A DNA stretch of 64,000 nucleotides from Macrostomum lignano (lineage: Eukaryota): the NCBI GenBank assembly GCA_002269645.1, contig NIVC01003894.1, forward strand, positions 1 through 64,000, in the 5' to 3' direction. The translations under genes and the position numbers were made by a program. Each line of letters starts with the position of its first letter. Position 1 is the stretch's first letter. The notes below the pieces were generated by a model. It ran no database searches and was not told the origin of the DNA. It worked only from the letters and a program-made list of their open reading frames with translations. Positions 1-64,000 of the stretch are shown piece after piece.

Positions 1-970
1 TCTGCGTTGCGTTTGATTTTCATACCGCGTTCCTCTTCGCTACAAATATCTCCGCCGAATATACCGTCACAAAGTTTGATGACGAGGAGTGTGAACGCCA
101 CGAACTATTGCTCCAGAGCTTTGTTCCCCCGTTTTCGACTCACCCTCAAGCCTGTTCCACCTTGCCTCTTACCAACTCCGCTACCACTTCTGGTCGACCT
201 GGACGCGCCATCGCGGCAGTTCTAGAGGTCAGGCCATTGAAGCTCATTTCCTCACCCTCCCTCGGTTCCACCGGGAACATATAGTTGGCCACCCCGACTT
301 TACCGACGACCCTGTTTTGACGTTAGCGACTCTCCTTGCCCCAAACTTCTCGCCTCCGCATACGGTGGTCGCCCTGAGTGATTCCCCCCCCCCATAAGCC
401 GCAATTTCTATCGCCTCAGCATCAGCCCCCCTTGGCCCTGTAAATATACTATACTCTCTCATTGTCTTTTGATCGTAGTCTCATTTCCAGCTCACCTTCT
501 GTTACTTTAAACTGCATGGTGTAAACACTACTTTGAAAATGATCATTTGATCGACAAAAAATATAAAAATTTAAAACCTCAAAAAACGCACGTCTCCATT
601 TACTCTTCTTCGCTTCATCTATGCTAGACTATTCACATAGTATTTTCGTAGCCTGCGACAAACTCAAAATGATCATTAGATCGCAAAAAAAAATAATAAA
701 ACTTGAAAACACAAAAAACAATACCATTGCTTATAGTTCATTTCGTACAACCCGTACTGCTCTTATCATGTTAAAGTTACAAAATGATCAGTCCGATCAA
801 TAAAAATTATAAAATTTTCAAAAAATTAAAAAATAGCAAATTTACAAAACTACAAAAACATTACTCTACGCTTGCTTAAAATTATGAAATCAACCCCCCT
901 AGCTGAAACTCGTCAGATAGTTCAAAATTCAAATTCGAAATTCAAAAAGCCAGAACAAATTCTCAGAAGA

Positions 971-1417: not shown

Positions 1418-3262
1418 ATGACCACACCTGTCCGAGATTTACGTTCCGGACCAGTTTTTCAAAGCTCAAATATTAACAGACCCCCTGAACAAAATTTAGA
1501 AACTTCTGACTGCCAAATAGGTGAACAGCTCCCACGAAATAGTTCACCAGTACCTAACCTGTTTATACCAAATAACGTTGAGTTTAATAACCCTCTCGCG
1601 GATCATTTTGAACACAACCGTGCACACTCACCAGCACCCAGCTCCATCCTAACAGACGCGGACGAAACAGTTCAACCAGCCCCAAACGATATTGCTGAAG
1701 AATCTACTCTAGATATGGCTGATCAGGACGGCGCTCCCCATGTTGATGCTGCAGCGACAAATGCTGTCCGTGAACTTACTGACGTTATGAACCGCAGTCT
1801 GCAATTGCAATCAAACCATCCCGTCTCAGCTACTGCTCTTGCTGAAATTCGTCAATCCCTGAAAGGAATCGACCAAATGCATGACTTCCGCTCCTTCACT
1901 GAAGAGTTCGACTTGATCACACGCTCCTTTGGACTATCGGAGAACGCAAAGATTCGGCTCTTCCCGCGACTACTGAATGACCTTCTTAAACTCGAATACA
2001 GTCGCCTCTCTGCCGCAGTCCAAGCCTCTTATCCAGCCACCATTGAGGCACTGTCTCAACGCCTTCGGGAAGTAACCATTGGCTCGGCTCTAACGCTGCA
2101 TAATGCAACAACCCGGAAACAACAGTACGGCGAACCGTTCCTGTCTTATTTCACCGATATTCGTCGAAAGCTCAGGTCAGCTATGCCGGAAATACCGGAA
2201 GAATTTCCGGAAGGTGCCGGTCCGGAAACACCACCCGCGAACCAAGCTGTCATCGACCAGCGCAACCGAGACTTCCTTGCTACCCTGATGGCTACGACTA
2301 TCAACAATGCTCTACCCTACATCAAACGAGAACTCTTGAAGCAAAATATCACCACGGAAAGTACGCTAATCAACAAGGCCATCCGCGCCGAACAAATCCG
2401 CGACTCCACCATGGACTCTGATGGCACTGACTTGAAAGCTCTCACAGAGCGTCTAACTACCTTAGAAAAAACGACGAAGGAAGCCAATCAGCAGGTGGTT
2501 GCCTCCCTGCAAACACAAACCAAGCCACCTATCGCTAATATGCAACAGAAGCCCACTTGTTATCATTGCGGTCGACCTGGACACTATGCCGCCGACTGTC
2601 GTCGAAGGAATGACCAACAACCTCGTCCCTTCCGACCTAACTCAAGTGATCGAAGGAACACAGCCCAATACGGCTCTGATGCCCCGCGAAATCGTTACCA
2701 GCAGGGACCGCCACGATTGACCTGTAACTATTGCCGAAAACCAGGACACTCTATTAACCAGTGCCGACTACGAGCCCAACGTACACAAGGCTACGGTCCA
2801 CCGGCGACACAACAATCACGATTTCCACCCCGTCAAGACTATGGAAACCGGCCTCAGCAACGCTATCCGCCTCGATACAACGGCACCAACAATCAACGAC
2901 AACCTCCGAGATTTGCGCAACAACAATATCCACCGATACGCGCCATCACTGCTCAGGACCCTGAAACGTCCCACCCAGGATGGAATCAACAGCCGCAGAT
3001 TGGATGGACGACTCACGACGCTCCCGAGTCTGCCCAACTGATGCACATTGCTACAGTTGATGAACGCCCACCGACTTTTGGAAACGAAATTCGCTACTCT
3101 GGAGACGCTAAGCAGCTGAAATCTTTACTCAAAAAACCGACTACTGCCGCTGCGACTATCAACTCTATTCGCCTTTGTACGGTTGAAAGAGTGACAAACG
3201 CCTACACTCCACCGACCAGCAACAACAACCGCGAGAAAACCGTGAAAGCTTCCGTCGGAATT
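1418..3262 (+). CDS. gag: Gag (capsid-like region plus two CCHC zinc knuckles), N-terminal part of polyprotein
   Basis: In ORF 1358..3961; first ATG at 1418. CYHCGRPGHYAADC (2558-2599) and CNYCRKPGHSINQC (2723-2764) in Q/P/R-rich context. No stop before the env segment. Confidence 0.9.
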
Positions 3263-5907
3263 CGCCGATCACTACTGACACTTTTTCTCCTGTGCCTAGC
3301 AACTTCACTCTTCGCACTAGCCAACGCTACGCCGATAACGACGTCAACTCCACCATCGATTGAGAGACAATCTCACGAGGGCTTCATTGACACACCAATG
3401 GTCTGTCCGTACAACCAGATCCCACGAATTTTCACGATACCACATGAGATCCGTTGTGAACAGCTCAAACACCAAACGACGCCGACACTCCCGTTGAAAC
3501 TGGAACTTTACACAACGAACGTGGAAACCAGTTCTCTGGTTATGACTGTCTGTTTCCGCGAGAAAATCACTATCAGATGTGATAAGGCGGTGATAAGAAC
3601 CTGGACATCCGCCCTGGTAGAGTTGGAACCGCAACCAGTCACTCAAGCTGATTGTGAAAACTGGGCACGAACAAAGCTATCGCCTGATGGATCATTAGTG
3701 TTAAAGACTGCGTCAACTCAGTCTATCCAACGCCTGCAATCGACATTCAACACGCAAAATGCTGTGCGTTGCACTCCTGGTTCACATTCAGAACAAATAG
3801 TAACAACAGTGATCACCGGAATCCCAGCCTACTCAACAGCAGATCAAAAAATGGAATCTTTGTCCTTCCCAATGGACAACTGCAAACTCGCCGACAAATT
3901 TTGTACAATTAAAACAACTGCACAAGAAATGCGAGCTTTCAACCTACCTTTGCCATACTAACATCCCCCTGGGATCCTTTGGAAACTGAAGCAATCTACC
4001 AAATTGACGTGAAAGGACCAAGACATCTAAATCTTATTTGGACACCTCCACCACTCGCTGATTGTCCTTTAAAACCATTTCGTACTCTTGAAGGCAACTT
4101 AAACTCCGGCTTGTTCTTAACTAATGATCAAACATTGGGACTAACCTTCAACCCAGTGCCGTCGACTCACACTCTCACCTGCACTGGCGTCCGTAAGACG
4201 TTGTACCTTTCAACGCAAGGTCTATACGTAGACATCCTCGACAACAAAGAAGCAGAATTTCTCGCCACCTTACGAAGCCCATTAGAAGAAGCTACTCCAA
4301 AACCTCAAACTAGCGAAGAAACCACTTCTTCGAGACAAAAACGTCGTTCACCACCAGCGATACTACCAACGCCACCAACAATATTACCCGTTCAGCAATC
4401 GACGACTCAACATCCTTTCACTACGACAACTCAGTCACGACAATTCCTACCGCCGCAACCTTTACGACAAGAGCGACCTGATCATCCACCGACGTCAAGC
4501 ACTTCTACAACAATGACGCCAACAACTACGATACTAACTACTACAAAATCAACACCAACAACTACAATTTTGACAACGACAACACCACCGACTACAACGA
4601 CAACACCACCGACTACAACGACAACACCACCGACTACAACGACAACACCACCACTACGACGACAATGCCACCGACTACAACGACAACAATACCTACCACA
4701 ACCGTAACACCGACAACTTCAACAACCACCACTGCTACAACCTCAGCAGCAACAACGACAGCAGATTCAACTACGACGACTACAAAAGTGACGACACAAC
4801 CTCGTACCACCACCTTACCGCCAACAACCTCTAGCAGCACAACCAGTGCACCAGCAAAGTCTGCAACCTCAACCCACACGAACTCACCAGCGACAACAAC
4901 CAATCCACAACTGGCTTCTATTCACACGAATCTAGCAGTTCCACATCACGAACCACAAGGCAGTCAACCGGATCTCCTACTACTACCACGCAACAAGCGA
5001 AGCACAGATGACAAAACCATCGCAGCCCCTTCAGGCAACTCTACTGCGCAACTTTCATCAACGTTCGCATCCGCTGAACTTCTTGCTGGACAACTACAAG
5101 GAGCTGCTAGTAAAGCTCGAAAAGACCTTCTCCAAGTACAGAAACAGCTGGCAACTACTCAATGCATGATGTACGCAACTAATCTCAAGTACAACCGACA
5201 GCTATACTACACACAACCAACGCTTGCTGCTCGACTCTTATTAAATGATCCTTTCCTGCGAGCTAGATCCATTGCTGGATACCTCTTCGTCTACCAGTGC
5301 AAACCTCTACACAAATTTCGCTTTGTCCAACCAAAGTACAAGACGAACCAATGCTTCACGCGCCCCCCACTGGAATTCCGCCTACAAAATTATACTGTTC
5401 TTGGATTTTTGGATACAACGACTCGTATTGTCTCCACAGCTACTCCAGCTCTAATCTCATGCGACGCCTTCCCATACTACTACCTGCCTAAACAATCGAT
5501 GCTATTCAAGACCACACTAAATTTTTCGAGATTTGAACCCACAACCGCTAATGTCAGATCCGATGAAAACTATCGTTGTCCGATTTGCAAACTTCCGTCT
5601 CCGAAAGCATCTTCAAACCTATGGGAGACATCAATTATACTTCACTTCGTAGCCCAATAACGGTGACCGACCTAATGCACCAGTTCATGCAAACTCGCGA
5701 TTTTCTGATTACAGTTTTCAAACTTCCGAATCGAACACGACACAGAACAGCACATGCTGACAGTGCATTCCTGGACTCAAAACTAGCTCTCTCAATCTAT
5801 GGTCTTCGTCGATATTCAACTGGGATCGACTAGTCGCAAACTATCAAGAAAAGTTCGTCTTAACAGCAGCTGTAATCGTCTACATTGCCGTTATTATCTT
5901 CGTGTGC
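3263..5907 (+). CDS. env: Env-like class III (herpes gB-like) glycoprotein, split by four frameshifts
   Basis: Signal peptide RRSLLTLFLLCLATSLFALANA (3263-3328); Cys-rich ectodomain; furin sites RQKR (4333-4344) and RNKR (4989-5000); gB-like motifs QPTLAARLLLNDPFLRARSIAGYLFVYQC and CFTRPPLEF...GFL; TM FVLTAAVIVYIAVIIFVC (5854-5907). Confidence 0.8.
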
Positions 5908-7395
5908 AATCTTGGCCGACTCTGCGTCGCCAGCACCATCCGGTACGGCAGAACGCACACTATACAAGTGCTGCGGCAACAACGAACTCCAACTCGAGTG
6001 GAATCACGAAACGACTACTCCCAACAACAGCAACTGATACCACCGAGACAAGCGCCAACACCCTCGGCACCCATCGAAACGATTGAACTTCGTGCCACCC
6101 TTCCGCCACCACGGAGACCACCGCCAGAACCTAAAGTTCCAAAATGGCCAGCAAACTACTCATACGCCTTTGTTTTGAAGCATCTAACAACAGCAACTAT
6201 GATCAACCTGTGGTGCCGCAACGCACCGCATACTCGACACAGATGCACCGCCCTCATTGACAGCGGCGCCTCGATCTCCTGCATCTCACCGGCATTCGCC
6301 AAAAAGCTTCGAGTACCATTACAAGACACCAACATGAACGCCATTTGTGCAGGAGGACAACAACTAAACCTCAACAAAAAGGCTACTTTTGATCTCGAAA
6401 TCGATGGACGCAACCACAAGATATCGGCCTTTGTGCTCGACACCCCCGACGCTGACTATGATTTGCTCTTAGGAGTAGAAACCTTTAAGTCACTGGGAAT
6501 ACCACTACAATTCGACTACTCGAAAGCGACAGCTAAGCTTGGCAATGAGCAATTTGCGATGCTCAACTCCATCCAACAGTTGCAAGAAACCTCTGCGGTG
6601 ATGCAAAACAAGCTAGAGTTACCACCACAGACAACGCACCAAGTCACGCTGAAACTCTCTTCTCGACATGAGCCAACGATTCCTGTCCTGTTCGTCCCTA
6701 AGGACCACACGATCCAGAAACACCAGTTGATGATACCAACTTGCCTTGTTTCTGTCAAGCCGGACGGACAAACTATCACTGTGGAAATTGCCAACCCGTC
6801 GCTGACAACGCAAACCTTGCATCCTCAACAAGTCATTGGAAATCTGGCTAACATGTCTGACTACAACATCGTGCGCCCAGCAGCTCAAATCAACAGTCTC
6901 CGCACGCTGCAACAAGAAGCACCTACGACTGACATGATCCGTACTCAACTCAAACAAGCCAACCAGCACCTCTCAACCGAGCAGAGTGAACAATTAGTTA
7001 CTCTAATGAACAAGTACCGTGACGTCTTGGCACTACTGCCAACCGACATGGGTTGCTCTACCCAATACACGGCTCACCTGCATCTACACCCACACTCTGA
7101 GCCAGTCACGTCCAGACCCTATCCAATCGCTCATGGACTACAAGAACGGTTTGATGAGCTCATCGAAAACTTCCGTCAAAAAGGAATCATCAGTCCGAGT
7201 GAATCGGAATACTCAAGTCCATGTCTTCTCGTGGAAAAGAAGACGCTCGACGCTCAAGGTCGCCGACAACTAAGACTCGTGACGGATTACCGAAAACTGA
7301 ACAAGCTAATTCGTGCTCCTAGCATCCGACCTCCTAAGATTCCGGATTTGCTACATCGATTGAAAACGCTAAACTGTACACACTCTGTGACCTAG
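5908..7395 (+). CDS. pol: Env cytoplasmic tail/linker, aspartic protease and N-terminal RT
   Basis: ALIDSGASISC (DSG 6259-6267), DLLLG, then RT N-terminal motifs RPYPI, SPCLLVEKK, RLVTDYRKLN. The frame is open from 5761 and includes the env TM. Confidence 0.92.
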   Translation, partial: NLGRLCVASTIRYGRTHTIQVLRQQRTPTRVESRNDYSQQQQLIPPRQAPTPSAPIETIELRATLPPPRRPPPEPKVPKWPANYSYAFVLKHLTTATMINLWCRNAPHTRHRCTALIDSGASISCISPAFAKKLRVPLQDTNMNAICAGGQQLNLNKKATFDLEIDGRNHKISAFVLDTPDADYDLLLGVETFKSLGIPLQFDYSKATAKLGNEQFAMLNSIQQLQETSAVMQNKLELPPQTTHQVTLKLSSRHEPTIPVLFVPKDHTIQKHQLMIPTCLVSVKPDGQTITVEIANPSLTTQTLHPQQVIGNLANMSDYNIVRPAAQINSLRTLQQEAPTTDMIRTQLKQANQHLSTEQSEQLVTLMNKYRDVLALLPTDMGCSTQYTAHLHLHPHSEPVTSRPYPIAHGLQERFDELIENFRQKGIISPSESEYSSPCLLVEKKTLDAQGRRQLRLVTDYRKLNKLIRAPSIRPPKIPDLLHRLKTLNCTHSVT

Positions 7396-8460
7396 CAGAT
7401 GCTTTCTACCAAGTTCGGATCGATCCAGAAAGCACAAAATACACTGCGTTCATTGCACCCAACGGCCTACTTTGGGAATTCAATCGACTACCTCAAGGAC
7501 TCAAGTCCAGTCCTAGCTTAATGTGCCGTCTTGTAGCATTGTTAACAGCTGACTCTCCAAATCAGATTGCCTACTTGGATGACGTCATGCTCATCGCCGA
7601 AGACTTCACCGGCATGCTCAAAGAAATCGAACGCTTCTTCCAAAAGTTACGACATCATGGATTGCGAATTTCACTACGAAAATGCATCTTTGCCAAAACA
7701 GAGGTACAATATCTTGGATTTGTGGTTTCTGCTCAAGGCATTAGACCCGCACCCAGCCTCATCGAGAAAATCAAGACCTTCCCTGTGCCTCAAACGGTTA
7801 AACAACTACAATCTTTCCTTGGACTTGCAAATTTCTACCGAACGCACATTGCTGGCTACTCACGAGTAGTACAACCACTTCTGAGTATCATCAAAAATAC
7901 TTCGAAGCCTAACAAATTCGTCTGGACGAACGCCGCCCAAGCAGCCTTTGAAAAGCTGAAACAACTTCTCTCTACGGATATACTACTGGTTCATCCAAAT
8001 CCGCGAAAACCGTACTTTCTGCACACTGATGCTTCGGATACCGCCATTGGAGCAGTACTCTCACAGCTAGACGACAGCAACCACCAACGCCCGGTTGCCT
8101 ACATTTCTAAGACGTTAAGTCCAACCGAACAACGCTATCCACCGATTGAACGCGAAGCATACGCCATCTATTGGGCAATAAAGAAGCTACACGTGTTCCT
8201 CTACGCCTCTTACCAACAATTCCACGTCTTCACTGATCACCAGCCACTCAAGAGTCTATTCAGTGACAAGCAACCTATCTCAAAACGACTTCAGAAGTGG
8301 ATTCTAGCGCTACAAGATTACAACTTCACTCTCAACTATGTGAAAGGCAAATCAAACGTAGTAGCGGACTGCCTTTCACGCATCCCCAAAGTCTGTCAGA
8401 TACAATCGCTGTCAACATTCAACGGACTGCAGGATGCCATTGATCAAGACCCATTACTGT
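7380..8460 (+). CDS. pol: Reverse transcriptase core and RNase H
   Basis: DLADAFYQV and FNRLPQGLKSSP (same frame, upstream of ORF 7521), YLDD, YLGFVVS, LHTDASDTAIGAVLSQ, EREAYAI, FTDHQPL, NVVADCLSR. Confidence 0.95.
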
Positions 8461-9856
8461 CTACACAATCAAAGCGCTTCTATCGGAAAAATCACCCACT
8501 CACGAGCTGTCCAAGAAAGACCAACAATATGTTCGCCGACAACTGGCACGTTATTTTCTGGATGGAAACACTTTATACTTTGAAGATGACGAAGGACGAA
8601 GCCGCCTCGTGATACCAACACGCTATCGTGAAGCTCTTTTGACAAGCAACCACTCGACAGCCCTTGGTGGTCATCTAGGTCACCAAAAGACAGCAGACAA
8701 AATCAGTCACTTCTATTACTGGCCTACACTACGACAAGATGTCTACAATTTCGTTAACAACTGCGAAGTCTGCCACAAAGCGAAAACAGCACCCGTCTAC
8801 GACCGCTGCACAAAGCCGTCAAATTCAACGAGGTTTTTTCTCATTTGGCTATCGACCTTGTAGGACCACTGCCACCAGCTTCCACGGCCGCGACGTCTAC
8901 AAGTACATACTCACGGCCCAATGCGGCGTTAGCAAATTCCTGTTCACATCCCGCTAACTGAGACAACTTCTGCAACTATCTGCAACAACCTCTTCAACCG
9001 TGTGTTCGCTTTCGCAGGACTACCAGCACACATCATCTCAGACAATGGACCCCAATTCATCTCGCAAGAATTTCGAGAGTTTATGGGTGCCCTTGGAATA
9101 CACCTGATCTACACCTCGGTGTACCAACCATCCAGCAACTTCGTCGAACGCGCACACAAGACACTGAAGCAAACTCTTACGGCCTTTGTCCATGACAAAC
9201 CAGATCTCTGGATTGACTTCCTACCTGCGGTGACACTAGCAATCAATACCGCCACACACTCAACGATGAATGAATCACCATTCTACTTGTTCTTCGCTCG
9301 AGACTTTCTGCCACCCAACGCACGGATCATGGAACACCAGACAACTGCATACATGGACGTTATTAAACCAGTCAATTTGACCTGTTCAGCTATTTTGCTT
9401 GCCAGAGAAGTCGCCAAGGAACTTCTGCACAACTCAGCTGAACAGCGCGCTGAAAACTCTGATAAGAAGACCAACAGCCGCTACATACGCCCCGGTGCAC
9501 GATGCTATTTAGATGTCTCAGCGACGAAGGAGACAAAATTCTCCAATCCTTATCGTGGCCCAATGCGTCTACTAGCATGGCTCTCCGATCAGAACGCACT
9601 GATTTCTGATGTCAACCGGCCAAGCGAACGACCAATCGTGGTACATGCCTCCAAGCTCAAACCATGGCCTGGAGATGGACTCAGCGCTGGACCTAGTCAC
9701 CTACCTGAGTTCACAACTGATGACATTCAGGTCCACCACAACCATCGGCCGCCATTGAGCAAGTCCATCGCGCTGCAAACCACGTCTACTGATGAGCCAC
9801 CAGTTCAGCCACAGACGCACGGCTACAACCTAAGATCGAAGAACAAGAAGTCGTGA
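8461..9856 (+). CDS. pol: Integrase (frameshifted)
   Basis: HHCC finger (HSTALGGHLG...CEVC); LAIDLVGPLP in the frame at 8845; IISDNGPQF; NFVERAHKTLK; C-terminal YNLRS. Assembled from four frames. Confidence 0.92.
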
Positions 9857-10158
9857 ATGATAAAAAATCTTCTAAATTTCTTTTCTCCTTTCTTTTCCTT
9901 GACTGACAATATTGCTTTCTCTTCCTTTCTTTCTCTTCCTTTTTTCTTTCCTTCTTTTCTAGCTTTTGCTCTCTCTCCCTGCATTGCGACTCTTTACGTG
10001 ACTACGAGTATTGACGAACTGACACAATGAACTTTTATTTTCCGTTTTATCAACAAAAGCTACAAAAATTTCTCTCTTTTCCCTCTTTACATTGCAGAGC
10101 TCACACGCTAAAACAATATTTTGTGTATCTATTGCTTTTCTCCTTTTTCCTTTCTCTT

Positions 10159-11088
10159 ATGGATCCATTTCCGCAACCAGTGGATATTCGACCACAGTTA
10201 AATCATGATCTTATTTGCCTCGCAACCGTTGTTGCTTGGTTCACTGAAGCAATATTTTATTCTGAAACTATTGGTGAACCCCAACGGCTACGCATGGCCT
10301 CCGCTTTCTTCTCTCGTTTTTATGTTATCCGCTGCCATCGCTTTTATCCTAAGATGCTCCGCGTTCTACGAATTAGTCTATTTGGTCTGCTGCGTCGTAC
10401 TCACTCACGACCACGTATACAGAACTTTTCTCCCACTATGACTGACGTTCTCAACCGCAGCTTCGTACCAATCCTACATTTTCTTTTTTCTCCTAATATG
10501 TCTATCGACGATTTCTTTCAACTCTCTGCTTCTACTCTCCCTCAACCATGCATGCGCTTTAACCAAGACACTTGGCCTCTGTTGCTTTCCTCTCTACGCT
10601 ACCCATGGCAACAATTCCGCCATGATGCTGCTAATCTTTCGGCGCAACAGTTAACTTCTACGCTCCAAAATTATTTAACCTCCTTCGATTCTCTCGCCCC
10701 TTATGTTTATCAAATTTTTCCTCCATTTTCTCCTCGTGCTACTAAGAAAGCTATGATACGCACGCTCAATCGTTTGTATCCGCACAATTTTTTCTTTACC
10801 CACGCTGTTTTCATTCTCTCAACGCGTTCAAGAAGCTTTGCTTTTATAATTATCGATTTTTATTCTCGCTCGGTAGTTGCCCATACTATTTTTCCTTTCT
10901 CTTGTCCTCCCTTCGTCGATATTTATACGATATTCACCGTATACGAAATGCTCTTGTTGGCTATCCTAACACCTTGCCAGAGTACGCCACTCTTCATACC
11001 TTCTCCATCAAGCGTATTCAACATTCTCCGCCTTCTGATCCTAATATTAATTTTGCTCGACTGGCATACGCTCTTTTTTATGACTTGA
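10159..11088 (+). CDS. Accessory ORF of unknown function downstream of integrase
   Basis: ORF 10027..11088; ATG at 10159 follows a pyrimidine tract; ~310 codons open, lying inside the element before the PPT/LTR. Confidence 0.6.
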   Translation: MDPFPQPVDIRPQLNHDLICLATVVAWFTEAIFYSETIGEPQRLRMASAFFSRFYVIRCHRFYPKMLRVLRISLFGLLRRTHSRPRIQNFSPTMTDVLNRSFVPILHFLFSPNMSIDDFFQLSASTLPQPCMRFNQDTWPLLLSSLRYPWQQFRHDAANLSAQQLTSTLQNYLTSFDSLAPYVYQIFPPFSPRATKKAMIRTLNRLYPHNFFFTHAVFILSTRSRSFAFIIIDFYSRSVVAHTIFPFSCPPFVDIYTIFTVYEMLLLAILTPCQSTPLFIPSPSSVFNILRLLILILILLDWHTLFFMT

Positions 11089-11353: not shown

Positions 11354-11559
11354 CCTACACGACTGCTGCTCTGTGCCTGGTCACTGCCAATTGCTGTCTC
11401 TGGCGCTGCTTCAACCGGATTCAAGCCACAACCTTGATCTACGCAGCCATCGCCCTACACTATGCCTGGTCTCTGCAAATCGCTCTGTCCCTGGCGCTGC
11501 TTTCACCTAAGTCAACCAACTAGCACTAAAGCATACGGCTCAACAACGTTTGTTCCTTC

Positions 11560-12003
11560 ATGACTGCACAGTCTGCTTATCTGACAACTTCGGCATCACA
11601 TCAAGTGGTGGCCCTGAAAAGGGCCGTTGTTGCGTTCAGAAGGCCGGACGAACCAGCAAAGCAGCTCGGCTCTTACACCACCGACTCCGCTGGCGGCGCC
11701 TCCACATCTTCTACCGCAGTCGACGCTCCAGGCGCGCCCGACCTGCAGCAGTTGCGCCGACAACAACGACAGCAACGGCAACATTGGCACAGCAGCAGCA
11801 GCAGCACCAGCACTCCCAGCACAGCGAGAAGGACGAGCGTGATCGCCCACCGCCTGTCGCCAAGGTCCCAATCATCTTGGGACCGCTTTGCTAAGTCGCC
11901 TAGCAAAAACCGAAAGTTCTTCCTTGTGCTCATGATGAATCGAATTTACTTGATTATTAACCGTCAGTCAAAAAATCGCTTAACTCGCCTTGCTCCATTT
12001 TAA
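11560..12003 (+). CDS. Possible second small accessory ORF (S/T/Q/R-rich)
   Basis: 147-aa ATG ORF in a GC-rich island inside the AT-rich 3' region. Overlapping ORFs in other frames make the true frame uncertain. Confidence 0.3.
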   Translation: MTAQSAYLTTSASHQVVALKRAVVAFRRPDEPAKQLGSYTTDSAGGASTSSTAVDAPGAPDLQQLRRQQRQQRQHWHSSSSSTSTPSTARRTSVIAHRLSPRSQSSWDRFAKSPSKNRKFFLVLMMNRIYLIINRQSKNRLTRLAPF

Positions 12004-12575: not shown

Positions 12576-13093
12576 TGAAGTGATACATTTTGGCTCTAGA
12601 AAGCTCCCATCCAGATTGAATGTATTTTAACCAATGAATGCGCTCCAAATAGCAAAAGCTGAGGACACGACCCCAACCTCAACCAATGAAAAGCAGTTAT
12701 GTACCATCCAATGCGATCAAGACTGAAAAGTACTATAAAAGCTCATGTTAACCAAGCAAGAAGCTCCCCCTTTTTTCTGCTCGCTCCGCCTCTCCACGCC
12801 CTTGCCTCTCCTTCGCCATTCTCCTAGCTTACCTCGTTTGACTATTTTGATTGACACAGTTAGGGTCTCAACCCAAACACCAAAACTTATAAGTCGACTT
12901 ACTAAAGCCAAACCAACACCCAATCCACGTTTCACAATAGACTGAACCTTCGGTTCATCCGAACAACTAGAAACACCTTGTGACTTAAATCGAACGAGCT
13001 TCTTATTTGGAATTCCACCTTAGACATTATATTTTGTGAGAAAACATCTCGAGATTGTGACCATCAAATACAACGGTCTGTAAGTTACCATCA
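12576..13093 (+). repeat. Putative 3' LTR
   Basis: Purine-rich gaaaaatagagcgaa (12561-12575) followed by TGAAG; three CCAAT boxes; TATAAAAG at ~12735; ends ...TTACCATCA. Ends are uncertain by ~15 bp because no second LTR is available for comparison. Confidence 0.55.
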
Positions 13094-14672
13094 AGTGTTT
13101 GCATCATCAGGAAAAGTCAGTTGAATCCGCCGCCTCAGTTATTTGGCTCTCACATTGATATTTGAAGTAGAACAAGAGCCATAGAAGTGAGAGACCAGAA
13201 GAAGAACAATAACATATATTTTAAAATATTTCAATTGCTTCAGAAAAAAGTCAAAATGAAAAAGGATAAACTTTAAAGACTATTTAAAATTTAAAATATA
13301 CTAAAATAGAACTCTTTAAAATCAACTAAAGATTAGTAAAATGTTGTTTTATCAGGTGCTGTTTTGTTACAAGATTTCAAAGTACAATTTAGGAACTAGA
13401 ACTAAAAAACCACATTGTCATCCTTAATCTGTCAATTGCACTGTGCATATACTACAAAACATAGCTACCACACTAGCTAAGTAGTGGGCCATATTGCGGA
13501 TTGTGTTATATATATGCCAGAAAGTATCTGGCTATCTAGTAAATTTGTATGCCAATAAAATATGCCAATTAAGCCCTCTAGTAAATTGTATACCAATAAA
13601 AATGCATGATTAATAAGTACAAAAACTATGTAACAAGCAATGCTTAGCATGCCAAAAATAAAATTATTGTAAAAAATAAAATAGAAAACGTGTATCATTT
13701 AAAAAAACGAGAATAATTAATAAAACAAAATATTTATGTCTTTTACTAATTAAGGCATAGTTCCTTATAGAAAATTTAGAATATTGTTTGAAAATTCAAT
13801 TTAATGTCATAATTTTGCAAATTAGTTGTGCTAGTGTATACTTCTGTTAACTATTCTTTGTGCCTGAAAAAATGCTTACGATTCATACACATAAAAAAGC
13901 CAATTAATAACCATGTTAAATTTGTGCGCAAACTAGAAACTAATTTTAGCCTTGTTTTACTATGCAAAATATTATCGATAAATATTTTTTGTTATAAACA
14001 TAGCCATCTAGACAGTATATATACGAGCCAATTTTTGCCCAAATATACCCTACTTGCTAAACTCACTAACTTGCTGCTTGCTCTTAGCTCGTTCATTCTA
14101 TATTCTCAGATAAACTTTGAAACCTTATTGAGTTAGTCATTTTAAGGAAAGAGGGAGTTACAGTGCTCAGAAAATTGCTAAGAGAAAGGATTGGGGAAAT
14201 ATACAATTGAAATTCAGAGTAATTGCCGAGACCCTCTAGTCCAGGTAACGCCCAAGAGAGACTGAAGAGACTGAAGAGAAAGAGAGTAAAAATACATCCA
14301 TACTAGTGCTAGACTGCTCAGGCCAAATGATATATTAGATGCTACCAGAATTATACATTAAATGCTACCCTAGAATATATGGGATTCTAAGAAACAAGTA
14401 GGAATTTAAAGGAGAAGAAATACACCCATGACAACTTGTTGGCAATTAGTGGGATAGTTAGAGGACAGAGGTTAGCCCTAGGACATAATTTTTGTGCACC
14501 AAATTGTTTAGCATAATTTATGCAATGATTTCATATATTTCAATGCTTTTGTATGCTGCGCCAAAAGCTTGAACAAGTATAGCTAAGAATTGTAAACAAA
14601 TGATTGTGCATGGTGGTTGTATTTCCTACGTTTACACTAGATGTATGCCAGACAAAGCATTTATATGCCATA

Positions 14673-22489: not shown

Positions 22490-23426
22490 GCAACATTGGG
22501 ATCAGACTAGGGCTCACCAGTAGTGGGATCAGACTGGGGCTCACCTTGATGCTGCAACATTGGGATCAGACTGGGGCTCACCTTGATGCTGCAACATTGG
22601 GATCAGACTGGGGCTCACCTTGATGCTGCAGCAGTGGGATCAGACTGGGGCTCACCTTAATGCTGCAGCAGTGGGATCAGACTGGGGCTCACCTTGATGC
22701 TGCAGCAGTGGGATCAGACTGGGGCTCACCTTGATGCTGCAGCAGTGGGATCAGACTGGGGCTCACCTTGATGCTGCAGCAGTGGGATCAGACTGGGGCT
22801 CACCTTGATGCTGCAGCCGTGGGATCAGACTGGGGCTCACCTTGATGCTGCAGCATTGGGATCAGACTGGGGCTCACCTTAATGCTGCAGCAGTGGGATC
22901 AGACTGGGGCTCACCTTAATGCTGCAGCAGTGGGATCAGACTGGGGCTCACCTTGATGCTGCAGCAGAGGGATCAGACTGGGGCTCACCTTGATGCTGCA
23001 GCCGTGGGATCAGACTGGGGCTCACCTTGATGCTGCAGCAGTGGGATCAGACTGGGGCTCACCTTAATGCTGCAGCAGTGGGATCAGACTGGGGCTCACC
23101 TTGATGCTGCAGCAGTGGGATCAGACTGGGGCTCACCTTGATGCTGCAGCCGTGGGATCAGACTGGGGCTCACCTTGATGCTGCAGCATTGGGATCAGAC
23201 TGGGGCTCACCTTAATGCTGCAGCAGTGGGATCAGACTGGGGCTCACCTTAATGCTGCAGCAGTGGGATCAGACTGGGGCTCACCTTGATGCTGCAGCCG
23301 TGGGATCAGACTGGCTCACCTTGATGCTGCAGCAGAGGGATCAGACTGGGGCTCACCTTGATGCTGCAGCAGTGGGATCAGACTGGCTCACCTTGATGCT
23401 GCAGCAGAGGGATCAGACTGGCTCAC
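22490..23426 (-). repeat. 37-bp tandem array (~25 copies) filling Rpt1 intron 2
   Basis: Sense unit GTGAGCCCCAGTCTGATCCCACTGCTGCAGCATCAAG; some 35-bp variants. Confidence 0.97.
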
Positions 23427-23879
23427 CTTGATGTTGCCCCTGGGGTCGAAACCGTCCAGCTGGTTGATGAGCTCCAGCATGGTCCGCTGCACCTCATTGT
23501 CGCCACCGGCGCCATCGTCGAAGCGGGTGCCGCCGATGGCGTCGATCTCGTCGAAAAAGACGATGCAGGCCTTCTTGGAGCGGGCCAGCTCGAACAGCTC
23601 GCGCACCATGCGGGCGCCCTCGCCGACGTACTTCTGCACCAGCTCGGAGCCGATGACGCGAATGAAGCAGGCGTCAGTGCGGTTGGCCACGGCCCTGGCG
23701 CAGAGGGTCTTGCCGGTCCCGGGCGGGCCGTACAGCAGAACGCCTTTAGGAGGCTCAATGCCCAGCTGCACGAAGCTCTCCGGGTGCAGCAGCGGCTTTT
23801 CGACGACCTCGCGCAGCTTCTCGATCTGCTCCTTGCAGCCGCCGACGTCAGAGTAGGTCACGTCCGGCTTTTCTTCCAC
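23427..23879 (-). CDS. PSMC2: 26S proteasome regulatory ATPase Rpt1, exon 2
   Basis: Walker A GPPGTGKT, Walker [27 protein letters not shown]; bounded by AG and GT. Confidence 0.97.
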
Positions 23880-23955
23880 CTGAGCGGGCAAGGAAACAGA
23901 CTGGTGAAGCTGGGGCGCACACGGCAAAGCGTAAGTTTTGAGGCCAATCATAAAG

Positions 23956-24210
23956 AGGCTGGGGCAGCATTGCATGCTGAAGAACTGAGGGCTGGGGCAG
24001 CAATGCATGCTGAAGAACTGAGGACTGGGCAGCATTGCATGCTGAAGAACTGAGGGCTGGGGCAGCAATGGATGCTGAAGAACTGGGGCTGGGGCAGCAA
24101 TGGATGCTGAAGAACTGAGGGCTGGGGCAGCAATGGATGCTGAAGAACTGAGGGCTGGGGCAGCAATGCATGCAGAAGAACTGAGGGCTGGGGCAGCAAT
24201 GGATGCTGGA
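23956..24210. repeat. 33-bp tandem array (~8 copies) in Rpt1 intron 1
   Basis: Unit gctggggcagcaatggatgctgaagaactgagg. Confidence 0.92.
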
Positions 24211-24263
24211 CTAAGGGCAGGATACCTAATACTCGAAACGAAGCACATGGGTTCTAATCGCAC

Positions 24264-24761
24264 CTGCATCATGGTGACGCTGGGATCAATTTTGGGCGGC
24301 AGCGGGATGTGGATCTGAAATTTGTTCCGGTCCACGCCGACCCGCATGCCCTCCTCGATGTCGGTGGGGGCGACGGTGTCAGCCAGGTTGGAGACAAACT
24401 TGGCGTACTGCTTCACGTTGATGATGTACTTCGGGTCGTCTGAATCCGCGTTGATGATCTTTGTGCAGCGGGCCACCTGCAGCGGGGTCTCGTTCTGCAG
24501 GGCGAGCTTGTCCGCTGCCAGGTCCCAGTGGGCGGGCGGCGCCAGGCCCGTGTCGGACTCCTTGATGCCCGTCAGCTCGATGACTCGCTTCATGATGGCG
24601 TCCATGTCCTCCTGGCACTTCTTGGTCTCCTCGCTGTACGGAGCAGCGCCGTAGGTCTTCATCAGGGCGATGTCGCCCTCGTCCAGGTCCTTGGCGGGCA
24701 CGGCGGAGGCTTTGTCGTCCTCCTTCACCTTGCGCTGGTCGGCACCGAGGTAGTCGGGCAT
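24264..24761 (-). CDS. PSMC2: 26S proteasome regulatory ATPase Rpt1, exon 1
   Basis: [11 protein letters not shown]...[14 protein letters not shown]...[11 protein letters not shown]...[10 protein letters not shown]. The three exons total 434 aa. Confidence 0.97.
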
Positions 24762-26644
24762 GTTGAGACCGCTAAGAGCTGAGGAGCAGGAGATAAGCGC
24801 GAGTTAGAGAAAGTTGTGCATTGGGGATCTGACAAAACAAGAAAGATTATTGTGTCTCATTTAAATCTGGATAAGATTTAGTTGTGCATATTGACTCACT
24901 GGCTATGTGAAACAGTCACTACATATAAAAAAGTCATTGCATATAAGTTTAAAACAAGCCACTAGCCAATTATGCTATAAATTTCTAGTGTAAAATAAAA
25001 ACTTATGATTTCTTGGGTTGCTGGGAATTCCCGGTGCTGGGAGAGGGTGAGGAGACCAGTTCAAGCTTTGGTGCCGCTAGAGATTCAGTCTTAAGTCATT
25101 TTTTTGTTCGCTGTTCAGCTCGTTTTTTGCATTTGGCTTTGCTACTGAATTTTCAACTTTTGTTGTTATATTGATAATCTGTTTGGTTGATTTGGTTTAT
25201 TATGTTAAATTGCATTGTTTTTTTTCTGCGTTTGCGTTTGGCATTTTTTGAGTTTTTGCAATTCTCATCATTTTTTTCAGTAATTGGGTTTCATTTTCCA
25301 TCCCGTTTCGAATTGACATATTATAGTAAAGTCCAATTAGTTTATCCGCTTCTTTCCTAGAGAATTGTTTGTTTTGGTTATTGTTAAATTTATTTAATTT
25401 CACTCAATATATCTCATTTCAATTGAGTTCACCATAGTTACACCAAATATACGAGTATTTTCAAAATTGGTGTTAATATTCGAAGGTTAATTTCTGAGAA
25501 AAATGCTTCCCATTTTTGGGGGAGTGTCACATTCTTTGGTGCATGCATGCTAGTGGAGTGGTTAACTCTATTTTCGATTTTTTATTATTAGCCTATAACC
25601 ACCCCTCTCCATCAGTCTTTTCCTATGTATGCACTTGTGAGGGCGGCAACGTACTTGTAGACTGCCCAGCTAGACAGCAAATATATATCAGCCAGGAGGC
25701 CACTGGCCTGAGCACCTTGCGCTTTCTTAATTGTTATTTTTACAACATGTGCCTGGGCACATTTAGCCTAAAAGCCTTGGTTGGTAAGTCACACATTTAA
25801 AACCATACTAGTTTACATTGGCCATGCAACTTAATTTTAAAAATACTTCTTTACTCCAATAGCCAGTTGCAACACTCAAATGTTTTATTTCTTTTTCCCC
25901 ATGCATTGGTCATGCATATTGAGAACTTTTTTAATATAAATAGAATCAATTGTACTTGCAAAATTGAAAAAATGTCCTAGAATAAATTTATTATGATCAA
26001 GACTATAAGCCAAAAATGGTAGAATACAAATTGTGGCTAAAATGAGATTATAAATGAAATTAAATATTTTTAGACTAGTGCCCAAAGTTAAGATAAATAT
26101 TATACTTTTCAAATGACAATCTTTCTTAGACAAAAAGACTTACTTAAATAAGAACTCTAGACAAAATATCTTATACTCCACTTTAGAATATTTGTCTGAA
26201 ATTGTTTCTGAAATCTACTGCATACCCAAAAAGAACTCATTTTTAGCATATTGGATTCCATTAGTATTAAAGTTAATTAAACCATATACCTTTTCACTTT
26301 CAGTTTTGAAATACCAGCAACCAACTTTAATAGGTTTGGAATCTGATTCTGCCCCTTTTTGGCTGTGGCAGCTTTGGTTTTCAACCAGTTTCAACAAACT
26401 ACAATACAAATTTAATAGTTTGCATGTACTTCCAACATACAGTGAATCAGTTCTAACAGCTGCCAACCTATTCCATTAAGTACAATTTTGTAAAGCATCT
26501 TTTTCAGCCAATTGTAACAAATTATAATGGAGGTCTCATATTTACTTTGGTTTAAAAAAAGATGCTAGATTTCATTGAAGAAACCATTAAAACAAACTTA
26601 AGTGTGACTTTAGCTGAGTTGAAAACTAGATTATATACTCAATG

Positions 26645-53746: not shown

Positions 53747-54373
53747 TCTAACCGAGTAGACGGCTATGTGATCAGCCAGTACCACAAGCTCAGGGAGCTG
53801 TTTGGCCGCTATGAGACGGCCCATTCGGTGGAAAGCCAGTTTCGCGTTGTGAGTTTTTTGAACTATAAAAGCCATTTAATTGAAGAAAAACCAAACTAGC
53901 TCTGAATGAAGAATTGAGTTTCAGCCATGACTTGTGCCCCTTCCCTCGTGCAGGCCTCGCCAGACACAGCCATCTGCTCCGAGCATAGCGAAGATGAGCT
54001 GGCCGCGGATGCCAACACTGTGAGTGGAGTGCAGCTCGTTTCTGCTATCGTTTTTTTGCTCATTTTTATATCAAAATAATAGATTTTTATATGGATATTT
54101 TGTAAGAAAATTGTCATTTGGGAGCTGGTGAATTCTACAGTGGTTGGCATCCGGCTGAGTCGTACTAAAACTGCCGCTCAAACCCCCCTCCCCCCAACTA
54201 AACAGTTGCGCATCCTCAACTCTGAGCTGGAGCAGCGCGACCTGGCAATTCAGAAGCTCACGGCGCAGGTCAAGTCGCTATCGGCTGTCAACGAAAAACT
54301 GAACATCGACCTGGAGATGCAGCGGACTGTCGTGTTCGAGGAGATGAAGAACCTATTCGACAAAATTTCCAAG
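53747..54373 (+). CDS. Giant coiled-coil gene, small exons 53747-53848 and 54206-54373
   Basis: AG/GT boundaries, all phase 0; SNRVDGY...QFRV / LRILNSELEQRD...DKISK. Confidence 0.7.
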
Positions 54374-54458
54374 GTTCTCTAACACTGTTCTGACCGTTGG
54401 GATTTCATTTTTTTGTTTTACTGTTGATAGCAAAAAATATATTCTAAATTGGCTTCAG

Positions 54459-57400
54459 ATTCACAGCGAGCTCGAGGAAGACTCGTGCATCCGCAACGCC
54501 ACAGCCGCCATGCTGCTCGGACAGGAGACCATCGAGCGCCTCGTGCGGGTTGTCTGCGACCTCAACGGCGGCGGCGACAGCAGCGCCATCAGACGGCAGG
54601 AGGATCCCGATGCCAGCCTGTCCAGCTTTCTCGCTATGGTCAAGTCAGATCGGCTTGAATACTGTGCATGCCTGCGCCAACGCTGTAGCCTTTCCTCCGG
54701 GCTCTCCGATACCGAGGCGAAAGTTCAGTCGCTTGTTTCAGACATCCAAGCCTTTGAATTGCATGATTCGCAGCTGGACCATCTGAAGCGATACTTGGAG
54801 CTCGACTCAGAGATTCTCAGTCTCAGTCGAAACTGCCTGCGCGGGGACAGCCGCAACATAGATTGGCGGCCCGGTGGGAAGCTGCATCCGAGCCGTTCCT
54901 ACCCGGGGATCGGAGATCAGCTGCCGGGCGTGATCTCCCTCGCTTGCATTGAGCAGTCAGCAGCATTTGCATCTGCCGCTTCTAGCCAGTCAAGTTTGAA
55001 CAAATCTGCTGCGTCTGAGGTCGCTGAGTTCCAGCAGAAAGTAGCCTCACTTTCTCGGTCACTGTCAAAGTCGCTCGATGTATTCCTAGAAAGCCAGCGA
55101 AGGGTTTCTATTTCTGCCGCTGGTCCAACACAGCCTCTTCGACCTAGCAAGAGTGCCGATTGTATTGAAGATTCCGCTGCAGAAGAATTCATAGCCGAAA
55201 TAAATAGTCGTGGGCAAAAACGTGGCATGTGTGACCAGGGCACCCAGTGGGAAGCCCCCATGTTCACATACATGGCAAGCTCTCGCGACTACCTTGATAA
55301 GGACAGCAGTGTTTCCGGTATTCGAGTCAAAAATCTTACTCAAGGTGAAGTCAAAATTCAAGAAAATGTAACAAATTTGGATTCTGAAGAGATGTGTATG
55401 CATACAGTTGTTTCCGAGTCTGCAGTACCGTCAGTCGTTTTTAATGTTTCATCAGATCGGCCCCATAAGCTTGAAAAGGGTACAGAATACATGAAAACTA
55501 CCACAGCTGCAGTTGGTACTTTGACGGACGAGACTGGTCCACTGCTTACTACTGACATTGCTACAGGACGCGAGCGGACATGTAACGCCGCAGTTGAATT
55601 TGTCCCATGTTTTAACAGCGTTGATGTAGCTACTCTAACCTCTTTAGAACTTTGTGATGCATCTATAGAATGCCAACAAGTCTTTAAACAGGATGCCTCT
55701 GTGGACAACATCAGACAGTTTAGCAGCCGCTACACGTCAACAGACGTTTCTGATACTTCTGATGCATCTACTGAGTTTAACGAAGTTTCAAGTGTCGAAG
55801 CATCTGTAACATGTTCTAATCTGCTCATCAGTGTTGCCGTTTCCACAGAGCATCCGCTAGTATCTGACGCAATTGTTGGAAGCGATATAGAGTTCTCTTG
55901 CTGCGAAAAAGCTGTCCAGTCTGTAAAAAATGCAAAAGAAGCGAGCATTTCGACGGATGTCCTTCTGATGTCTGACGCAAGTACAGACTGTGAATGCCCT
56001 TCTAGAAGAGAAGCTGCTTCTGAATGTACTATTCAAGTTAAAAACGCTAGCTGCGGTGCTGAGCGTATTGAAGAAGCTACCAACTGCGATGAAATTGTTG
56101 TTCACGATGCAGCCATTGAATGTACGGTCGTATTGTCAAGTTCATATGTATCCACAGAGACCATTGAGATATCCGATGCTGGTACAAATTGTGAGCCAAA
56201 GATTGTGAAAGATGCAGCTATTGACTGTTTATTGACAGTAAGAAATGCAGATTTATCCACAGAAGTAATTCGCATGACGGAGACAAGCACCAACACGCCA
56301 AATCGTACTTCAACAGGAACTATTACTGATTCTTGTTTTAGTGGCTCCATGGACGTAGGCACGGATACACCTTTTGATAATTTCGCTGAAGCCACTCAGT
56401 GCGCGGGCGGTGAAGGAGTTAAAGGAAAAGATGTAAAAGTATGCACGCCACAATTGGAAAGATTTGAAGCAAGTACAGATGGCACTGAGATGGCAGCTGA
56501 TCAAGAAAGCCTAGCACAAGTCTTTGAGAGCTCTGATTTACGACAACCTGCTGATATAGCTACACATTATCAAAGTACCTCCAAAGTTAGCGATGCTATT
56601 AAAGGCAATGAAGCTACTACTACATCGACTGCACTCCTTGATAGTGGCTTTGTATGCAGAGAAATAAAAGCAACTAGCGATGCAAGTACGACCGCGAAAA
56701 TGGAAGCCGACACGCGTGTGTTGGTTGATGCAAGCACCGAGAGTTTTAATCAAGCGCTAGTCAATGCAGAAGTGGATTGTTCAATCAGAGTTACTAGTGT
56801 ATGTGTATCAACTGATGCTTTTCAAAGTCGTGATGCATACACGATTGTTTCTAGCAGCGATGCAAGCATGGACTCAGAGCTGGGAATTTCCAAAGCTAAA
56901 GTGTTAATGGACAGCCAAAAAAACACTGATGCTTCATCAGCACCGAAACATTCTTTTGATCTAGTTGATCATACTGTAGTACATCCGCTTTTTTGCGATG
57001 CGTATTCGGCCACAGACAAAGCTATTCTAATTGATGCGAGTACCGATACAGAATTGGACTCTGGTTTCCCTGGATTCCCAGTAGCTGCAGAAATGCTTGA
57101 TGCTAGCGTTCAATGTGCTTTTGCATATAGTTCAGATAGTGTTCGCGAATTTTTTGGCGCTCAAAACAGTAAGTTCAAAATTGAAGCCGACAATGAGTCT
57201 ACGGTCCATATAATGCATATAAAGGAGCGAAAGATGCAACAAAAAAATAGTTCTGATTCCGCTCAAGCAGCTGATCAAGGTGCCTTAGGCGCAGCTAATA
57301 CATTCATTGTGTCAGATGCTAGTACTCAAAGTGCAATGAGAAAAACTCGCAGTTGCAAAGAATTGTTTACAAGTGCTTTTAATTCTTCAGGTGCTCAGCC

Positions 57401-63400: not shown

Positions 63401-64000
63401 TGCAAATTGAAGAGAAACTCGCAGATGCTGAAAATCGAGCTTTTAACTTTCAACAACAGCTAGAGACTCGCTCATTGTCTAATCCATCCGGTTTAGATCC
63501 TAACTGGGGAGATTCTCTATCCTGCAAGCCCTTTGATGACGAGACTGAAGCAAGTCCCACATATTTGAAAAATGCGTTGATTGAAGTTGCCGCTGAACGC
63601 GACGTTCTCGCACAAGATCTTGCAGAAATTCGTAGAGAGGCAAATGAACTGGAGTCTAAAAATGTTCTGTTGTCTGAGCAGATAAGACAACAAGACGAGT
63701 TGATTTTAAGTTTAAATTCGGAAGTAGATAACAGAGATGTCGAATTGAAGAGCAACGCTCTGAGTTAGAAAGTAATAATGCTCGGATTGAGTCTCTTTTG
63801 TCTGAGACAAAAGATTTAAAGGCAATTGTTGCCAGACTAGAGACGGATTCATCCTTTTTCCGTGAATCTTTTTCAGAGGAGCTTAAAAATCTGACGAATG
63901 CTTATTATACTGGTTCAGATACCACTGTCATTACGGCAAATGCTTCTTCGCAAACGGATAATCAAGAATCTAACGAAGGCACTACTTTGTATAGTCAATG
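54459..64000 (+). CDS. Giant exon of a >3,100-aa coiled-coil/S-T-D-A-rich repeat protein (three 1-nt frameshifts; runs off window)
   Basis: Acceptor cttcAG at 54458. Frames 54459-~57995, ~57996-59555, 59557-~63748 (open although the ORF track starts it at 62152) and ~63749-64000 (EQRSELESNNARIESLL... open to window end). Confidence 0.8.
59160..62150 (+). repeat. Coding 66-bp (22-aa = 2 x 11-aa) repeat, ~45 copies
   Basis: DASTSAKLEFA-DASSGLSEERV consensus with DASSSATKESI variants. Confidence 0.95.

Follow-up and report, generated by a model that had tools for sequence, protein, structure and literature searches.

The 64,000-nucleotide stretch of Macrostomum lignano DNA that we analysed (contig NIVC01003894.1, positions 1 to 64,000; here called the window) opens inside a copy of a Ty3/gypsy retroelement, of which positions 3329–5913 are the env gene. 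The encoded order is gag-env-protease-RT-RNase H-integrase, with all features on the plus strand. Since the stretch begins at the start of the contig, the 5′ end of the copy is absent, and the first feature is the 3′ part of an accessory ORF that precedes gag (1–378; in sister copies it encodes 269 amino acids, whereas here it is split between frames), with a putative SOCS-box-like motif near 125–322. Gag (1418–3271) carries two CCHC zinc knuckles (zf-CCHC, E 3.6e-8) and shares its frame with the start of env. Beyond env lie an aspartic protease (6238–6489, DSG at 6259) preceded by a cytoplasmic tail of ~105 residues, reverse transcriptase with RNase H (7359–8321, YLDD at 7572–7583), integrase (8612–9856) with an H2C2 zinc finger, rve core and C-terminal part, a second accessory ORF 3′ of pol (10027–11088; 353 amino acids, hydrophobic, without known family), and a 3′ LTR of 658 bp (12576–13233; TG...CA) with a purine-rich tract just before it. 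The best match of the RT in the PDB is Ty3 RT (E 4e-59), followed by other groups at 7e-34 and weaker. We rejected BEL/Pao membership because, in this comparison with PDB sequences, the RT is closest to that of Ty3 and because gag is of the CCHC type.

Env is divided into two predicted subunits. An internal signal peptide ending in A-x-A is predicted from hydropathy at 3272–3328, 3329 being the first codon past the hydrophobic segment. The N-terminal subunit (3329–4332, 10 cysteines) comprises a fusion domain with two putative loops set in a PH-fold domain, and ends at a predicted furin motif, RQKRR (4333–4347). A Thr/Pro-rich, mucin-like insert of ~215 codons, predicted to be disordered, follows at 4348–4988; it is not mentioned in the initial annotation of this DNA. 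The second furin motif, RNKR (4989–5000), sits in the loop that corresponds to the cleavage loop of herpesvirus glycoprotein B (gB). The C-terminal subunit (5001–5856) consists of the central helix, crown domain and arm, with 4 cysteines in register with gB, and leads into a transmembrane anchor, predicted from hydropathy, at 5857–5913, within which position 5907 falls and whose frame is that of the protease. The env of the window copy is distributed among different frames, which change near 3955, between ~4490 and 4850 (in the repeat of the insert), near 5576 and near 5790. The three env motifs quoted in the initial annotation are all present and in one frame (5145–5174, 5214–5300 and 5352–5378), with GFL at 5403–5411.

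The env piece gave 150 scored matches in the genome, and by our count the family of the window copy, family A, occupies 22 places on 21 contigs; such counts overstate independent insertions, because many host genes are found in three near-identical places of the assembly. Comparison of sister copies gave an element of ~16.8 kb with LTRs of 658 bp ending in TG...CA, and a primer site of 14 nt complementary to host tRNA-Glu. Target-site duplications of 4 bp, read by eye, flank four family-A copies. Four of six LTR pairs were without any substitution, the remaining two being 98.9 and 96.6% identical. Family A is thus a young, recently active Ty3/gypsy family of M. lignano, which, as a multicopy family in a laboratory flatworm, leaves particles, Env cleavage and spread open to observation. 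The insertion age of the window copy itself is unreadable, since its 5′ LTR lies beyond the start of the contig. Sister copies hold gag, env and pol in a single frame, which in copy L001 has 2,086 residues and spans gag, env, protease and part of RT. None of the ten family-A copies retrieved was seen to be open from gag to integrase; copies of family B are open, and in related families one frame runs from gag to integrase (2,859–2,866 amino acids in L002 and L008, 2,458–2,538 in L003–L005). We also noted two tandem family-A copies with one LTR in common on contig C172 (L017–L019, L006), a copy on contig C1861 (L066) without the equivalent of window positions 3520–7829, that is, the protease together with most of env and a portion of RT, as well as diverged derivatives (L063–L065, L067–L068) that retain the accessory ORFs with little match to gag-pol.

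The initial annotation had read env as a gB-like class III fusogen. Profile searches, three fold searches and the register of the cysteines all agree with this reading, and a gB-type class III fold is supported by the structure model described below. Window piece 4980–5570 alone, searched against the PDB at E<=10, gave 6 matches, each of them weak (E 0.022–0.099) and each of them envelope glycoprotein B; they align in the register that had been proposed, and with cytomegalovirus gB three cysteines and an NP motif are aligned. Against the Pfam family PF24664 (Monjiviricetes fusion glycoprotein) the window piece scored E 5e-4 and 18.6 bits, below the 27-bit cut-off, which is passed in three sister families. 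The whole ectodomain of a sister copy had no match in Pfam and only matches at E 0.1–0.3 among PDB sequences, and with a five-env profile none of the 5 PDB matches was gB. Significance came with more relatives, a deeper alignment being needed. With a profile of 9 envs from this genome, EBV gB was matched at E 1.5e-14 and gB made up 25 of 28 matches; with a 62-row profile all 52 matches at E<=0.01 were gB (best E 4.5e-23).

The structure model was built for the ectodomain of a sister copy, 96–100% identical to the window over the aligned pieces, and was folded as a monomer with the 62-row alignment (492 of 868 residues at pLDDT >=70, pTM 0.57, insert disordered). It carries a fusion domain in a PH domain, a long central helix and a crown domain, with hairpin tips at the two putative fusion loops. 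Foldseek found gB only among the 31 matches listed (best E 4.6e-14, TM-score 0.29–0.40). In a second fold search, which does not lean on Foldseek, ten class III fusogens ranked first of 48,161 chains: six gB, rabies G, Chandipura G and the Bourbon and Thogoto glycoproteins, with PH domains next. The structure search that the initial annotation had proposed thus returned the class III fold. The best Z in this search was 11.1 (rmsd 3.4, 167 residues aligned), and HSV-1 gB reached Z 11.0 (rmsd 12.1, 439 aligned). Among predicted viral structures the best match was the Midway nyavirus glycoprotein (E 3.8e-20), and structural matches to viral proteins were 7–14% identical. Separately, the gB-type model matched four uncharacterised entomopoxvirus proteins (W6JPK9, Q9YVZ3, A0A916KPE9 and Q9YW15), with E values from 1e-17 to 3e-9.

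The cysteines, too, line up with those of gB: four C-terminal and four N-terminal env cysteines align with EBV gB, three of them with HCMV gB as well. Twelve of 14 are kept in at least 96% of 54–61 rows, and all 14 are present in the frames of the window copy. Env thus resembles the gB of EBV, HCMV, HSV-1 and PRV in its central helix, crown domain, cysteine register and the place of the cleavage loop, as well as having, by hydropathy, a signal peptide and a C-terminal anchor. It differs in its low identity to gB (7–14%), in a shorter folded part (~570–600 residues), in a loop of ~240 residues with two furin motifs, in being part of a retroelement polyprotein and in that no gH/gL partner was seen, whereas herpesvirus gB requires gH/gL (PMC13524379, Discussion). 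With the glycoproteins of Monjiviricetes (nyami-, chu- and borna-like) it shares the fusogen class, a similar size and the best predicted-structure matches, the window piece, however, falling below the PF24664 cut-off.

That a flatworm Ty3/gypsy element of gag-env-pol order has a gB-type env is not a discovery, because it is already published. According to the article of Chary and Hayashi (2026, eLife; PMC13524379), the HSV/gB-type env, in the order GAG-ENV-POL, is the only type carried by the elements of Nematoda, Bryozoa and Platyhelminthes; its table has nine flatworm elements, one of them from M. lignano, and its text cites Sacco et al. 2022 on nematodes and calls the entry mechanism of such elements unknown. 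The window element is like this class in its Ty3/gypsy pol, its gB-type env between gag and pol, its signal peptide and anchor, its multiple copies and its flatworm host. Elements of that class are also expected to have uninterrupted ORFs; the window copy is interrupted as assembled, and copies of family B are open. It differs from the M. lignano element of that table in the length of the LTR (658 versus ~864 bp) and of the element (16.8 versus 10.6 kb) and in the primer site. Of 46 loci, 11 contain the published primer site; these belong to families D and E, and none to family A; the published element is a sister family of family A.

The NERVs of Sacco et al. 2022 (J Gen Virol) reportedly have one continuous gag-env-pro-pol ORF, an env like nyamivirus glycoproteins and small extra ORFs. 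The present element differs from them in its flatworm host, and NERVs are not known to have a mucin-like insert. The initial annotation was correct that gB-like envs occur in invertebrate LTR elements, which are better known than it implied (PMC13524379); its example, Ascaris Tas, does not agree with a later paper. The env assignment of Cer and Tas by Malik in 2000 is said to have been opposite to that in this later paper. In the later paper (PMC7642597) Cer is given the herpesvirus-type env and Tas that of the phlebovirus type, contrary to what had been annotated. It also describes Anakin, an element with a chuvirus glycoprotein; Anakin is, however, BEL/Pao, in contrast to the Ty3/gypsy element of the window.

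What goes beyond the main text of PMC13524379 is the Thr/Pro-rich insert flanked by two furin motifs, together with the two accessory ORFs. The insert separates the PH-fold domain from the central helix, at the site of the furin loop of EBV gB, itself rich in Ser, Thr and Pro. In a sister copy it has 239 residues (42% Thr, 18% Pro, 8% Ser, no Cys), and across family-A copies 205–255 residues, or 625 to 765 nt between motif starts. Furin motif 1 is found in all ten family-A copies and motif 2 in nine by protein pattern, in the tenth by nucleotide motif. From this anatomy we infer that furin would cut on both sides and excise the insert. Two furin sites are known to release an internal peptide, p27, from the disulfide-linked fusogen RSV F (PMC5615316); RSV F is, however, class I and p27 has 27 residues, whereas env is class III, its insert has 205–255 residues and the cleavage is predicted. 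If true, a mucin insert that can be cut out of a class III fusogen would extend the known priming of gB-type proteins. The text of PMC13524379 says that conservation of the furin site is not universal, and two sites are not described there; the words 'mucin', 'polyprotein' and 'single ORF' are absent from its main text, and its figures and online sequence files could show the insert. A mucin-like insert or accessory genes in such elements were not found in the literature searched, which was that outside subscription journals.

Env-bearing elements of gag-env-pol order make up no fewer than six families in this genome (A, B1/B2, C1/C2, D, E and F), with envs 22–47% identical to that of A. Among them the Thr-rich insert is found only in families A and B: B1 and B2 (42–47% identical to A) have the same insert with both furin motifs, and in families C to F the loop is short and carries a single motif. 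In an env tree (FastTree, 42 of 159 rows, with deep nodes poorly resolved) A and B form a clade with support 0.998 that lies within the short-loop families of this genome, which makes the insert a gain; the B1 env shares its tip with a database protein of M. lignano. We surveyed the loop in the 132 of 159 rows that have both anchor cysteines, rows that are not independent. In 114 rows the loop is short (median 29 residues), with an RxxR motif in 100 and two motifs in 1. Loops of at least 70 residues occur in the other 18, and 12 of these have two separated motifs, against 2.6 expected from shuffles. Long loops with two furin motifs sit in at least four places on the env tree. Long-loop envs with two RxxR motifs from other lineages are P0050, P0051, P0055, P0045, P0052, P0100, P0036 and P0106, of which only P0050 is of low complexity (Pro/Arg/Thr); P0051 is an env-bearing polyprotein labelled as a Gammaproteobacteria MAG, and is probably animal DNA in the bin.

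How such a polyprotein might work can be proposed from its anatomy and from the biology of gB and RSV F. The chain would cross the ER membrane two times, first at the signal segment and then at the anchor, which would leave Gag membrane-anchored, Env lumenal and Pol on the Env tail. Gag would stay cytosolic, held by the internal signal segment once signal peptidase frees Env; the ectodomain would fold as a trimer in the lumen; and the anchor would bring the chain back to the cytosol, where protease, RT and integrase would hang on the Env tail and be packaged with Env. Gag, Env and Pol would be present in equal amounts until the protease cuts them free. The single-frame layout thus predicts an assembly logic different from that of retroviruses, with Pol packaged via the Env tail. 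In the Golgi the insert would be O-glycosylated and then freed by furin cuts on both sides, leaving two subunits joined by gB-type disulfides. The primed trimer would move particles from cell to cell, most likely from soma to germline or stem cells in the same worm. That env could make the element infectious, as had been suggested from the sequence, is plausible. We consider it likely, with a fair margin for error, that a functional gB-type Env of a recently active element carries particles between cells, and that the frame breaks of the window copy are assembly errors.

The strength of selection bears on this reading and on its rivals. Measured over nine copies against the natural frame of one copy, pN/pS was 0.04–0.13 for both env subunits, 0.00–0.20 for protease-RT, 0.16–0.48 for gag and 0.42–0.71 for the insert, values that are not independent because the compared copies are kin. 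Env is thus under purifying selection and conserved about as strongly as Pol, which is more than a mere tether should need. It therefore speaks against the proposal, in our view unlikely, that Env keeps the gB fold without fusing membranes and serves as a membrane scaffold gathering Gag and Pol inside the same cell, with the insert a tolerated expansion. Env would then be kept because Gag and Pol share its chain, and because it has to be translocated and folded if it is to get past ER quality control. Pol does follow the anchor in frame, so that simple frame decay could not remove env, and the insert varies in length and is weakly constrained. The putative fusion loops of family A are, moreover, poor in aromatic residues, with a single one per loop where 49 database rows have medians of 3 and 4, in a region of uncertain alignment (families D to F have 2–5). 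The retention of both furin motifs across three families and of 14 of 14 cysteines, however, is not what a scaffold would lead one to expect. The frame breaks raise a different doubt, namely that the family is genuine and the window copy truly decayed, its breaks being real mutations and no working Env being made from it. This copy has five frame-breaking indels in the gag-to-RT part and more in pol, and its age, with the 5′ LTR off the contig, offers no check. In nine copies there are 63 such indels, 57 of them single-base and 43 of these 57 in base runs; none of ~1,200 substitutions is a nonsense change, outside the insert there is no in-frame indel, and copies with identical LTRs still carry 2–9 breaks. 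This pattern, mostly single-base, free of nonsense and as frequent where LTRs are identical, points to assembly error, and the four env frame breaks of the window copy are probably of that origin. In favour of real decay are the 7 of 55 break positions that are common to more than one copy, and the excess in env, where 36 of 63 breaks fall against an expected share of 0.36 (p 0.0005, for events that are not independent), a density ~2x that of gag and pol; 25 of 41 fall in env when the worst copy is excluded. The env excess, however, fits neither plain error nor neutral decay. On balance we find a decayed window copy somewhat more unlikely still than a non-fusing scaffold.

Very improbable, by comparison, is a recent capture of env from a herpesvirus or a chu- or nyami-like RNA virus, or its domestication by the host. 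The nyavirus match among predicted viral structures and the passing of the PF24664 cut-off in three sister families are what such a capture might leave behind; an identity to viral proteins of only 7–14% is not, and the envs of this genome cluster together, with one database row, at support 0.989. The env and RT groupings also agree (A with B, D with E), in an RT tree of 7 rows from this genome only, without families C2 and F. The gene, moreover, sits between LTRs at no fewer than 22 places. We rejected both recent herpesvirus capture and host domestication. The initial annotation's 'captured' env holds only in a very ancient sense and fails as a recent or herpesviral event: the env profile matches 498 database representatives, Meloidogyne proteins among them, and the best viral fold match is a nyamivirus. 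An arrangement in one chain is common among these proteins: by motif counts, in the best 150 of the 498 a zinc knuckle precedes env in 53, a protease motif follows it in 41, and both occur in one chain in 26.

The element also carries genes outside the gag-env-pol frame. The upstream ORF (window 1–378; L009:5061–5867) encodes 269 amino acids, with pN/pS 0.32–0.52 and no stop substitutions. SOCS-box clusters came first for it in the ESM Atlas (score 0.92, 195 of 256 features, at a low recognition of 1566), and a BC-box/cullin-box-like motif can be made out in a register judged by eye against the consensus. The ORF did not match Pfam SOCS_box (PF07525), nor was it among the genome's 89 matches to that family; it had no Pfam, PDB-sequence or fold match, its model (pLDDT 42) being too poor to use. 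These data hint weakly that the product may be SOCS-box-like. The downstream ORF (10027–11088) is found in family-A copies, with pN/pS 0.27–0.50 and no stop substitutions, and had no Pfam or Atlas match. Neither accessory ORF had a match in the retrieved loci of other families. Lentiviral Vif directs a cullin ligase of the host at a defence factor. A bolder version of the reading that we prefer, possible but in our opinion rather doubtful, is that of an infectious, virus-like element whose class III fusogen would bear a removable mucin shield of ~240 O-glycosylated residues, freed by two furin cuts, and whose accessory genes would include a candidate SOCS-box adaptor that turns a host cullin ligase on a defence factor. 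On this reading, long loops with a pair of furin motifs would have originated several times among the envs of gB-type retroelements. Two more short frames have pN/pS <1 and are possibly accessory genes: window 11557–12003 (0.32–0.52) and L009:4387–4737 on the minus strand (0.13–0.24). An intronless gene at L079:1429–1788 is presumably Elongin C-like.

Beyond the element the window holds host sequence. A host AAA ATPase gene lies at 23388–24803 on the minus strand (Pfam AAA, E 8e-31), which resembles a 26S proteasome regulatory subunit. Long host frames are found at 54348–63768, and a 66-bp tandem array of ~44 units near 59030–62300 codes for 22-residue repeats.
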